Positions 2,960 through 21,936 of a stretch of DNA of 64,000 nucleotides are shown here, in pieces. Location: IMG/VR virus record IMGVR_UViG_3300031088_000734. One strand, 5' to 3'. How positions within the stretch are numbered: the first letter of the stretch is position 1; every line of letters begins with the position of its first letter. Both the position numbers and the translations under genes were made by a program. The notes beneath the pieces were generated by a model that did not search any database, had not been told where the DNA came from, and worked only from the letters and a program-made list of their open reading frames with translations. The stretch is from a virus.

Positions 2960-3844
2960 TTAAATCATTGTCATATTGAGAAATTCAATATCGCGTTTAT
3001 CAAAATAACCATCTGTAATAAAAGATTCTGATAATAAATTGGGCTTCAGCTCTTTCATTATTTCAGGTGAAATACATTTTTTCTTGTAGTAACAATGCAC
3101 TTCCAATGGATTACCCATTAAATCAGTCACCACCACTGCAGGCACTATTTTATCTTCATCTGGGTTCTTGATAAGCTTTACAAGTAAACTTAATTCATTA
3201 TAACAATGCAATTCTAAGTAGCTCGCTGTCTTTTCATAGTCAAAAAGACACGATTCGTTTAATTCTTTTGAACTGTTATATGTAATGTAACTAGGGGTTA
3301 ACTCATCGAAATAATGAACCGATTTATTATTGATTTTTTTTACGAATTTTTTGTGTTTCATGTATAATTTTTGTTTGCTTTTTAATAGTTCTATTTCAAT
3401 CATTAAATCATTTTTGACCGGCAAATTATCTAACAACTCTTTGAAATGATCTTCCATGTCAGCATTTAAAGTTATAAAATCATGACCAAATACAATATCG
3501 TTAAAAATTGATTCATTGAGAGTGTCTATATGTTTGAATTCTATTTTATTTTTAGGATGCTGATTAAATTTGTGTGCTGAACTTGTCCAATTAATCAGCC
3601 ATTCTTCAAAAAAAGGTATAGGTGATATCGGTGGTAGTGCTAAAATAGGGAAAGAAGACGCAAACGTCGATTTTGTACGTGGCTGCACAATATTTTGGCT
3701 TAGACTTTTTATTCTGGAATTCCAAAAATTTGAACAATTTACATTTTTTATCGAGTCGATATTTATATCTAATAATTCAACAGGATCTTCTATTTCAAAA
3801 GTCGGATATATTGTAAGGGTATGTTGTGACATGATAATCTCCAA
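2960..3844 (-). CDS. C-terminal-motif family protein (ends FLNMTMI)
   Basis: 294 aa; paralog of 2079-2957. Confidence 0.85.
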   Translation of the reverse strand: MEIIMSQHTLTIYPTFEIEDPVELLDINIDSIKNVNCSNFWNSRIKSLSQNIVQPRTKSTFASSFPILALPPISPIPFFEEWLINWTSSAHKFNQHPKNKIEFKHIDTLNESIFNDIVFGHDFITLNADMEDHFKELLDNLPVKNDLMIEIELLKSKQKLYMKHKKFVKKINNKSVHYFDELTPSYITYNSSKELNESCLFDYEKTASYLELHCYNELSLLVKLIKNPDEDKIVPAVVVTDLMGNPLEVHCYYKKKCISPEIMKELKPNLLSESFITDGYFDKRDIEFLNMTMI

Positions 3845-20393: not shown

Positions 20394-21353
20394 TTGTTTT
20401 TTATTGAGGATTTAACAATGAAAGTTATCCAGCACAATGCACATTTTAATCGTTCTCTGCCAAAAAATGTAATTTCCGATAACTTGGTTTCATTTTTGGA
20501 GATGATTAATCAAGAATTTTCATTTGAACAAGCTCATCTCTATCATCTGACGAATGAAAATATCAATGATTACAAAAGTGTCGTCATTGAAGCTATTGGT
20601 AATCGTATTAAATTGCTTCGTGGTGTTGGGCCAAGAGAGAACCAAGAGTCATTGGTTAAGGAAATTAATTCTGATTTTGATGAGATCGTGGATTCAAATA
20701 TTTTGCCAGCATCTTTGATTATTTTCGATTATATCTATGGTTCAACAGTAGAATCTTCAATGGTATTTTTTCATGAGCATAATGATATGTTAATGATTAA
20801 CACTAAATTTTCTACATTAAGCTTTAAAAGCAACTATTTTCAGGCTCCACCAATTTCATCATCTGATGGTCGTTATTATCCTCCTGTTGTAGAATCGCTG
20901 GCTTATGAAAGTTCAACGACAAAGGGGACTTTTCCTTTTGCATCATTTTTAATCCCTGTTAATATGGAGAAAAATCAATTTGAATCCCACTACAGAGAAC
21001 GTCATCAGAAAAAAGCAGAACTTCAACTGAGAGAACTGGACGGTGGTCAATTTGATTTTAAACAATTAACACTTCCACCTAATTTCGACATTCATCAATT
21101 TGTTTCTCGACATCATGGTAATCCAAAAGTTCTTAATGCGAAACTTATCTACAATAATGAAGTTATTTTTAATGATTATGAGATTATTGATCGTGATCCA
21201 CAAAAAATGGTCGCTCAAAAGTTGATCCCGTTTTTGACTGATTTTAAGTCGCAATACGAAATCATTGATAGCATTCCTGTTCAGGTTTCTTCCGAATATT
21301 ATCAACATTTTAAAACTAATATCTTGCCTGTCATTGAGATGGCTAAATGTTAA
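20394..21353 (+). CDS. C-terminal-motif family protein (ends VIEMAKC)
   Basis: 319 aa from TTG; ATG at 20418 after GAGGA is the likelier start. Confidence 0.85.
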   Translation: MFFIEDLTMKVIQHNAHFNRSLPKNVISDNLVSFLEMINQEFSFEQAHLYHLTNENINDYKSVVIEAIGNRIKLLRGVGPRENQESLVKEINSDFDEIVDSNILPASLIIFDYIYGSTVESSMVFFHEHNDMLMINTKFSTLSFKSNYFQAPPISSSDGRYYPPVVESLAYESSTTKGTFPFASFLIPVNMEKNQFESHYRERHQKKAELQLRELDGGQFDFKQLTLPPNFDIHQFVSRHHGNPKVLNAKLIYNNEVIFNDYEIIDRDPQKMVAQKLIPFLTDFKSQYEIIDSIPVQVSSEYYQHFKTNILPVIEMAKC

Positions 21354-21371
21354 TATTTTCGAAAAAAAGTC

Positions 21372-21400
21372 TTGCCAAAGGGTTTAAAATGTCGTATAAT
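21372..21400 (+). promoter_or_regulatory. sigma70-type promoter of the ncRNA unit
   Basis: TTGCCA-17 bp-TATAAT. Confidence 0.85.
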
Positions 21401-21422
21401 GGCCCCGTTGTAAAGCAGTAAG

Positions 21423-21744
21423 TAATCTTGGGAAGTTGGCTTAAAAGCAGCCATCTTATAATGAGTAGAGCGGTTGCCATAGGTGTTTGGGATTTAGTGA
21501 TGGTAAGCATCGGGTTTAAATGATTTAGCGGTCATTTGAGGGTATCGGTGACAAGTGAGCCACGGTTTGTCGAAATCGAATCCACATTAAAGTAGATTTT
21601 GCAGATCAAAACGTCTCAGCCAAAAACTCCCAGTTCTTGCAATAATGTAAGAATTCGCCGTGGTTGTGGTCTTGGTAAAGTAAGGAGGCACCCCAGAAAT
21701 GGTAAGGCCGAATTCTCTTTTGGCGTAATAGCACACCATGATTA
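21423..21744 (+). ncRNA. structured RNA containing a split mimic of the 23S rRNA GTPase-associated centre (H43-H44)
   Basis: GGAAGTTGGCTTAAAAGCAGCCATC...GAGT (21431-21466) and GCGTAATAGCACAC (21723-21736) match 23S ~1055-1104; closing helix TAATCTTGG/CCATGATTA. Confidence 0.75.
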
Positions 21745-21764
21745 TGATTGTTTTCGCAACAAAA

Positions 21765-21833
21765 CTGCCACTAAGGCTGACCTTAGCCCTCTAAAAGCTA
21801 AAGGGAACGGTTCGACTCCGTTGTGGTGGGCCA
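21765..21833 (+). tRNA. atypical 69-nt tRNA-like element, anticodon CUA (amber), reduced D arm
   Basis: Acceptor CTGCCAC/GTGGTGG + G + CCA; T arm AACGG-TTCGACT-CCGTT; loop CT-CTA-AA; D arm AGG-CTGA-CCT. Confidence 0.7.
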
Positions 21834-21843
21834 ACTTTAAACT

Positions 21844-21880
21844 AAATGCCAGCTCATAGCGATATGATGTTGGCATTTTT
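21844..21880 (+). terminator. intrinsic terminator ending the ncRNA unit
   Basis: AAATGCCAGC...GTTGGCATTT followed by TT. Confidence 0.75.
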
Positions 21881-21936
21881 ATTGTCTTTATTTTATTTTT
21901 GTGTTATAATCGTCCAAATTTTTGGAGATCCATTGA

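Follow-up and report, generated by a model that had tools for sequence, protein, structure and literature searches.

The described RNA domain closest to the one reported here is the GTPase-associated centre of 23S rRNA (the end of H42 with H43 and H44; E. coli 1051-1108), and the two have in common their sequence, their helices, the 1082:1086 pair, U1060/A1088, the G.A pair 1056/1103 and both loops. However, the phage RNA stands alone, with a 10-bp closing stem of its own and a place among tRNA genes, and between 1090 and 1091 it always carries an extra helix with a UUUR return linker; position 1101 is A, which can pair with U1090. Parallels for such an interruption are found in rRNA itself: variable arms, expansion segments and intervening sequences likewise occupy a fixed point in a conserved core, are closed by a helix and hold hypervariable content, whereas the phage insert is never absent, is placed within H44 and not at the tip of a helix and, in its commonest class, has a junction core of its own. 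Group I introns in LSU rRNA genes are also inserted in conserved rRNA-type sequence, between the same U and G bounds as are found at our locus, but the phage insert has no catalytic core, guide or conserved terminal G, its homologues are far too short, and intron-free alleles do not occur. Imitation of an rRNA protein-binding site by RNA off the ribosome is itself familiar from the mRNA leaders of ribosomal protein genes, such as the L10 leader. Whereas these leaders are cis-acting parts of bacterial mRNAs and loose mimics, the phage RNA appears to be free-standing and near-exact, with an arm inserted; no Rfam leader family of this kind matches the locus.

The genomic niche has precedents too. 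GOLLD and ROOL are phage non-coding RNAs of tRNA islands, probably released by tRNA processing (PMC12286853). The family described below occupies the same niche, phage tRNA arrays, as GOLLD, ROOL and the T4 RNAs rnaC and rnaD; our locus contains no Rfam GOLLD or ROOL match, and rnaC and rnaD, which we considered as relatives, contain no rRNA-like domain.

Here we consider a 64,000-nt stretch of viral DNA (IMG/VR record IMGVR_UViG_3300031088_000734; hereafter the window), in which 256 nt interrupt a copy of this ribosomal domain. From comparison of the sequence with its relatives, we think it probable that this interruption is an accessory arm, permanent and with a fold of its own, and that the phage non-coding RNA to which it belongs imitates the uL11/thiostrepton-binding GTPase-associated centre.

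An rRNA-like shell interrupted within H44

The tract 21360-21900 is non-coding, with short and spurious-looking ORFs only. The rRNA-like halves, which we call the shell, and the signals around them are as follows (23S positions in E. coli numbering throughout):

21372-21400, + strand: candidate sigma-70-type promoter of the RNA unit (TTGCCA, 17-nt spacer, TATAAT; 11/12 of the consensus, a consensus match only)
21422-21466, + strand: 5' half of the shell (gapless 23S alignment, Rfam LSU match, family covariation)
21422-21431, + strand: 5' strand of the closing stem, in the 5' half (family covariation)
21433-21457, + strand: H43 equivalent, in the 5' half
21458-21462 and 21463-21466, + strand: the 1082-1086 loop and G1087-U1090, in the 5' half
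21723-21745, + strand: 3' half of the shell (23S alignment and family comparison)
21723-21732, + strand: top of H44 and its loop, GCGUAAUAGC, in the 3' half
21733-21735 and 21736-21745, + strand: A1101 to A1103 and the 3' strand of the closing stem, in the 3' half
21765-21839, + strand: tRNA-like 3' module (CUGCCAC ... T arm ... GUGGUGG G CCA; read by eye)

The insert (21467-21722, 256 nt) lies between U1090 (21466) and G1091 (21723) of H44. Its coordinates and junction were exact as first proposed: deletion restores a gapless 23S match, in which 21427-21466 and 21723-21740 join into 58 nt, 50 of them aligning with 23S positions 1054-1103 at 42/50 identities to Salmonella 23S and 44/50 to a Paenibacillus 23S fragment (84-88%). 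Alignment scores of the joined shell are 60-70, against 18.4 +/- 2.2 for shuffles. When the insert is retained, the 23S alignment is confined to the 5' half, which is also all that the Rfam LSU model matches.

Judged by its sequence, the shell copies the GTPase-associated centre faithfully, with H43, H44 and both the 1067 and the 1095 loops in place, together with U1060/A1088, the 1082:1086 pair and the two base triples, 1071/(1091:1100) and 1072/(1092:1099). Across the family, the 5' half covaries at 1058:1080, 1062:1076, 1064:1074, 1082:1086 and the closing stem. Among 71 elements, all four Watson-Crick combinations are seen at 1058:1080, covariation extends to each position of the closing stem (the 1047-1055 / 1104-1112 equivalent), U1060/A1088 is kept in 71/71, as is G1056.A1103 in general, and G1071 with G1091:C1100 does not vary. 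A wider sample shows U:A, C:G or A:U at 1082:1086 (A:U in the window instead of U:A), C:G or A:U at 1064:1074, and G:C or A:U at 1062:1076. The tertiary triple 1072/(1092:1099) covaries as well, with two or three exceptions: C with C:G becomes U with U:A in four independent elements (L010, L008, L013 and the first of two in Pseudomonas phage Astolliot). In an alignment of 34 elements that joins the shell to the conserved core of the window's insert class, 95.7% of cells are paired, as compared with ~44% in a slid-partner control, and both sides have changed in 22 of the 30 pairs.

The shell departs from rRNA exactly at the insert, position 1101 being A in 68 of 72 elements. U1090 can consequently pair with A1101 directly beneath the insert, which would then exit between two stacked pairs.

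A phage family with a single insertion site

Among phage records, partial BLAST matches came from Aeromonas phage 4_4572 and from the Pseudomonas phages Astolliot and UNO-G1W1, in every case from unannotated DNA adjoining tRNA genes. A search pattern based on the 3' portion of the insert retrieved 15 IMG/VR contigs, and one blind to the insert, built from rRNA positions 1071-1090 only, retrieved 98 IMG/VR loci; in every one of the latter (98/98) an insert follows GAGU, between 1090 and 1091, and is itself followed by H44 sequence of the GCGUAA type. A looser scan over all loci, phage and metagenome contigs together, yielded 157 elements with 117 unique inserts, and an uninterrupted element was found in 0/157. 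Further named carriers are phages pf16, Milchi, XacN1, XaC1, GAP32 and CBB, the element having been read directly in pf16, GAP32 and XacN1 only, with BLAST matches to the H43 half alone in Milchi, XaC1 and CBB; the named examples are phages of Pseudomonas, Aeromonas, Xanthomonas, Cronobacter and Pectobacterium. The insert class of the window occurs in at least 119 metagenome contigs according to a metagenome pattern scan. Its pattern matched 16 times in 185,579 species genomes, about the number estimated by chance, and a real element was present only in L119 and L125, both metagenome-assembled contigs.

The family has no entry in Rfam 15 (window and 19 other loci scanned), is unannotated in the GenBank phage records examined, and is not described in any text that we found in the searchable full-text literature; it is apparently a large and undescribed family of phage RNAs. 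A match in Paenibacillus phage Pd_22F (L260; positions 83276-84708 of the record, an unannotated region) was rejected as a member, being an ordinary uninterrupted 23S fragment that is probably host DNA or an assembly artefact. Two members have unusual layouts: L013 (2869-3260) has, besides the insert between 1090 and 1091, a second large insertion between the 3' strand of H43 and the 1082-1086 loop, and L153 (430-510) has a 5' half with no recognisable H43 hairpin and a canonical insert, H44 and 3' strand, so that it is either a degenerate copy or one with H43 displaced further upstream.

The elements lie among tRNA genes: in 40 of 72, a true tRNA gene on the same strand is no more than 100 nt away, often 2-15 nt, and 58 of the 72 have a tRNA within 3 kb. 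Between the mimic and the tRNA-like module of the window, for which ARAGORN makes no call, there is a small hairpin (21748-21762, UUGUU-UUCGC-AACAA); after the module, a hairpin followed by a U run (21845-21885) is terminator-like by eye and was missed by the terminator scanner because of its long loop. Elsewhere, a member with a minimal, 66-nt insert shares its tRNA array with a full GOLLD RNA (L019, 1582-2047; 185 bits), which is situated some 100 nt upstream of it; L032 has a GOLLD gene that does not adjoin its family element; and the rRNA-mimic element of Xanthomonas phage XacN1 (L262, 29-679) is preceded, at a distance of about 20 nt, by the end of a gene with the annotation 2'-5' RNA ligase. 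No L11 homologue is encoded in the phage record.

Certain rules hold for all classes of insert. The 70 unique inserts of the first scans range from 27 to 338 nt and fall into ~38 unrelated sequence clusters; inserts of 27, 45, 62 and 66 nt are found at the same site as the longest, and the smallest is a plain hairpin. In every class, the first bases of the insert pair with those just before a 4-nt 3' linker, which reads UUUG in 52 of the 70, UUUA in 15 and otherwise in 3. This closing helix has at least two pairs in 71/71 elements and at least three in 68/71, and runs uninterrupted for 3-5 bp in 60/71.

Astolliot (L001, 1060-1570) has two elements in tandem upstream of tRNA-Met, with different insert classes. 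The second is of the window's class; the first, which carries the variant U1072 with U1092:A1099, belongs to a second recurrent class (UGCGAGU ... AAGACCC.UAGAGCA-UUUG) also present in XacN1, GAP32, L025, L027 and L043. In L079 (IMGVR_UViG_3300009873_000002), the insert, which follows locus position 3145 and is 318 nt long, opens with a strong ribosome-binding site (AAGGAGG) placed 5 nt before the ATG of a 41-codon ORF; deeper inside is a sarcin-ricin-loop-like hairpin, with 12/14 positions of the E. coli SRL core and the GAGA loop intact. In L037 (IMGVR_UViG_3300007354_000004), whose 313-nt insert is of another class, the hairpin GCAU-AGUA-C-GGGA-G-GAA-AUGC at insert position ~224 is a textbook sarcin-ricin (bulged-G) motif with a GNRA cap. 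These two hairpins would fit with arms that add to the imitation of a factor site. Comparison of the inserts with Salmonella 23S and 5S rRNA gave best BLAST scores of 18.9 bits, against 18.7 for shuffles, and general rRNA mimicry by the inserts was rejected accordingly.

A conserved class core with a long arm

The insert of the window belongs to the largest and commonest class, with 68 unique members of 65-332 nt. Minimal members of 66 nt reveal the class core, which consists, in order, of a 4-bp P1, P2 as either a hairpin or a long arm, an AAGU strand, P3, a 5-nt strand, the 3' strand of P1 and UUUR. In the window these parts are:

21467-21470, + strand: P1 5' strand, AGAG, pairing with 21715-21718
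21471-21674, + strand: P2 arm, a long variable branch
21675-21686, + strand: junction strand J2/3, GUAAAGUAAGGA, containing the class-conserved AAGU
21687-21709, + strand: P3 hairpin (GGC/GCC, 21687-89 / 21707-09; ACC/UAAG internal loop; CCA/UGG, 21693-95 / 21700-02; GAAA tetraloop, 21696-99)
21710-21714, + strand: junction strand J3/1, GAAUU, 5 nt long in 61/68 class members
21715-21718, + strand: P1 3' strand, CUCU, pairing with 21467-21470
21719-21722, + strand: UUUG linker from insert to H44 (UUUR conserved in every insert class)

All four pairs of P1 are Watson-Crick in each of the 68 members, with two to four pair types per position, and P1 is 100% paired in the 34-element alignment of shell and core. 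Most of the 68 have AAGU or UAGU 5 nt ahead of P3. The consensus of P3 itself runs G-N-N, ACC, C-C-N, tetraloop, N'-G-G, UAAG, N'-N'-Y; the middle pair of its outer helix is G:C in 32 members, U:A in 28, A:U in 5 and C:G in 3 (L135, for example, has GAC/GUC), the loop-closing pair is standard in 62/68, and the loops are of GNRA or UAAN type (GAAA, GAGA or UAAC/UAAA/UAAU). The ACC/UAAG loop was required by the search patterns, and its invariance is overstated for that reason. In L108 (92-331), the window's long P2 arm is kept and P3 is replaced by an unrelated A/U-rich hairpin, which indicates that the two modules of the insert are separable.

Several other readings of this core were tried and set aside. 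P3 is not a sarcin-ricin loop, as its tetraloop is flanked by ACC/UAAG and not by AGUA/GAA, and the GAA that follows P3 is not conserved. By eye, none of an 11-nt receptor, a UAA/GAN motif or a k-turn fits the sequence of the ACC/UAAG loop, and the idea of a tetraloop-receptor contact found at most 0.15 bit of mutual information between loop type and any shell position. Of two alternative helices offered by RNAalifold, AGAGC/GUCUU breaks in the AGAG sequences, where P1 covaries perfectly, and UAAAG/YUUUG breaks in L135 and across the class.

The architecture of the P2 arm is common to six relatives, two of them near-identical to the window: L135 (93% identical to the window), L011, L108, L153, L188 and L042. 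Its helices in the window are:

P2a, 21471-73 / 21672-74: CGG/UUG (CAA/UUG in relatives)
P2b, 21476-79 / 21661-64: GCCA/UGGU (no change in relatives)
P2c, 21482-85 / 21656-59: GGUG/CGCC (wobble-type change only)
P4, 21487-91 / 21629-33: UUGGG/CCCAG (GGG/CCC becomes GAGG/CCUC or GCGG/CCGC)
Xa, 21499-21511, + strand: hairpin of the comparative model
Xb, 21515-21540, + strand: hairpin AAATGA/TCATTT (four substitutions in L135, all keeping the pairing)
P6, 21556-59 / 21615-18: UGAG/CUCA (UGGG/CCCA)
P7, 21564-69 / 21602-07: GGUUUG/CAGAUC (GGUAGA/UCUAUC)
P8, 21573-77 / 21595-99: AAAUC/GAUUU (AUGAA/UUCAU in L108, AAAUU/GAUUU in L135)
P9, 21634-41 / 21646-53: hairpin 21634-21653, UUCUUGCA/UGUAAGAA (sequence differs in every relative)

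Compensatory changes occur in P4, P6, P7, P8, Xb and P9, and the changes in P2a, P2b and P2c are only of wobble type. A scan of IMG/VR with the motif pattern of the P2 arm returned almost only chance matches; a scan for CTCAGCCAAAA...GCCGTGGT added one new full relative, L135. Folding energy gives no signal of its own: the minimum free energy of the 256 nt is -65.5 kcal/mol, no better than chance (z = -0.5 against shuffles), so that the case for structure rests on the comparison with relatives. The comparative model, which covers the P2 arm in part, comes to -39 kcal/mol.

How, then, does the single-sequence view of this insert compare with the family? The original prediction had listed five helices, three of which hold: the AGAG/CTCT helix (21467-70 / 21715-18), which is P1 and covaries; the AAATGA/TCATTT hairpin, with its compensated changes in L135; and the TTCTTGCA/TGTAAGAA helix, in whose place five relatives have a hairpin of unrelated sequence. 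The remaining two, CGGTTGCCA/TGGTAAGGCCG and GGTGTT/GGCACC, give way to better-supported pairings. Both use strands of P3, a local hairpin that covaries with itself and contains their 3' partners, their 5' partners pair elsewhere, and both break in L188, L042 and L153 and across the class. The minimum free energy fold contains one of these unsupported helices, which shows that folding a single sequence misleads here. The broader proposal, of an independently folded domain attached to an rRNA mimic, is borne out by the conserved, covarying core and by the long arm common to six relatives.

A probably retained arm and its possible roles

The family does not support an intron reading of the 256-nt stretch. 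The original prediction had offered, as the alternative to a folded domain, an excisable sequence of group I type, and the U before the junction, the G that ends the insert and the presence of two RNA ligase genes in the window spoke for it. Both ligase genes are indeed there (Rnl1-like at ~62.3-62.9 kb, Rnl2-like at ~48.0-48.6 kb), although we take them to be the T4-type tRNA-repair pair, which needs no role in splicing. The boundary bases are likewise present in the window; however, the U is simply the ordinary U1090, and the terminal G is not conserved, the last base being A in 15 of the 70 unique inserts (16 counting one UUAA ending). No P1 internal guide had been noticed, and the family agrees: in 68/68 class members the first four bases of the insert are taken up by pairing with its own 3' end, leaving no room for one. 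A cmscan of 21300-21920 against Rfam at E <= 10 reported only frnS, the leu-phe leader and LSU rRNA fragments, with no match to group I, group II or ribozyme models, and no intron, ribozyme, riboswitch or known large RNA was found in any insert (Rfam gathering threshold and E <= 10, window; 19 related loci). Across the family, the features of a group I intron (catalytic core, guide P1, universal terminal G, ribozyme size and intron-free alleles) are all lacking, and a catalytic core could not fit into homologous inserts of 27-66 nt. Group II introns, with their domain V/VI and exon-binding architecture, find no Rfam match in the window or the 19 loci. Nor is there a bulge-helix-bulge, the junction strands (0 nt and UUUR) facing each other at one three-way junction as read from the sequence, and no RtcB is encoded in the phage record. 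Insert length does vary among homologues, as the intron reading had expected; yet none of the 157 elements is insert-free, contrary to what one would expect of a mobile or optional intron. Self-splicing or enzymatic splicing, with the exons rejoined into a contiguous mimic, possibly by the phage ligases, is on these grounds extraordinarily improbable.

Removal without rejoining deserves separate thought. Host RNases could excise the insert as they do an rRNA-type intervening sequence, the halves of the mimic being held together by pairing, for which the 10-bp closing stem and H44 could suffice. The fixed site, the hypervariable sequence and length (27-338 nt, 38 clusters) and the invariable closure by a helix all fit, a pattern similar to that of the intervening sequences found in helices 25 and 45 of bacterial 23S rRNA. 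However, the closing helix extends for just 3-5 bp before branching (60/71 elements), a length insufficient for RNase III; the insert interrupts a helix and does not replace a loop; and it is always present, whereas intervening sequences of rRNA are sporadic. Moreover, a class core with covarying helices and conserved junction strands implies selection on the fold of the arm itself, and we regard excision of this kind as quite improbable. Or could the roles be reversed or coupled, with the insert as the working part (an aptamer, decoy or sensor) and the shell as a nuclease-resistant scaffold, or as a mimic switched on when the insert folds and closes the short P1? A single type of shell combined with many unrelated inserts would suit such an arrangement, as would the two adjacent Astolliot elements with their different insert classes, a P1 that is short in all classes, a minimal class core of 66 nt, close to the size of a small aptamer, and the separable modules seen in L108, where P3 is replaced and the arm kept. 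Against it, the shell retains essentially every universally conserved base of the rRNA domain, both loops included, which suggests that it is recognised as a ribosomal site; we found no alternative pairing conserved across classes, and no ligand or riboswitch family matches in Rfam (window and 19 loci). We consider this reading unlikely.

As the shell preserves the features on which the fold and the recognition of the real domain depend, we favour the view that the RNA is a free imitation of the uL11/factor site and bears a permanent accessory arm. The two ends of the RNA would rebuild the uL11/thiostrepton-binding centre, H43-H44 on a 10-bp closing stem. The arm would leave H44 between the pairs 1090:1101 and 1091:1100, out through the 4-bp P1 and back through UUUR, a route by which H44 can stay stacked in a three-way junction, and internally it would form a three-way junction of its own, from P1, the long variable P2 and the short conserved P3. 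The RNA is probably cut from tRNA-array transcripts by tRNA-processing enzymes, and once released it may work away from the ribosome by imitating the factor-binding site. The arm would then offer a second surface that varies between phage lineages, for example a tetraloop for docking or a platform to which protein or RNA binds.

A bolder, rather improbable idea is that the junction between 1090 and 1091 is a plug-in slot for dozens of interchangeable sensor or effector domains; in the commonest class, that of the window, the compact three-way-junction core would bind a ligand or protein and, in folding, close the 4-bp P1 and switch the decoy on. Were this so, the RNA would be a natural allosteric rRNA mimic that tunes host translation factors, uL11 or ribosome-directed defences.

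For experimental work, a retained arm, and not an intron, would mean that the full-length RNA is what should be built, rather than a 'spliced' 58-mer, and P1, the tetraloop and internal loop of P3 and the UUUR linker would provide handles. The family is, besides, a natural example of a modular RNA scaffold. If the RNA is indeed a ribosomal imitation with a permanent arm, then near-exact, free-standing copies of the ribosome's factor-docking domain occur in large phages of many hosts, each copy fitted at one fixed point with a structured arm particular to its lineage; and as the insert is the variable half of the molecule, it would be the most likely source of functional differences between members of the family.
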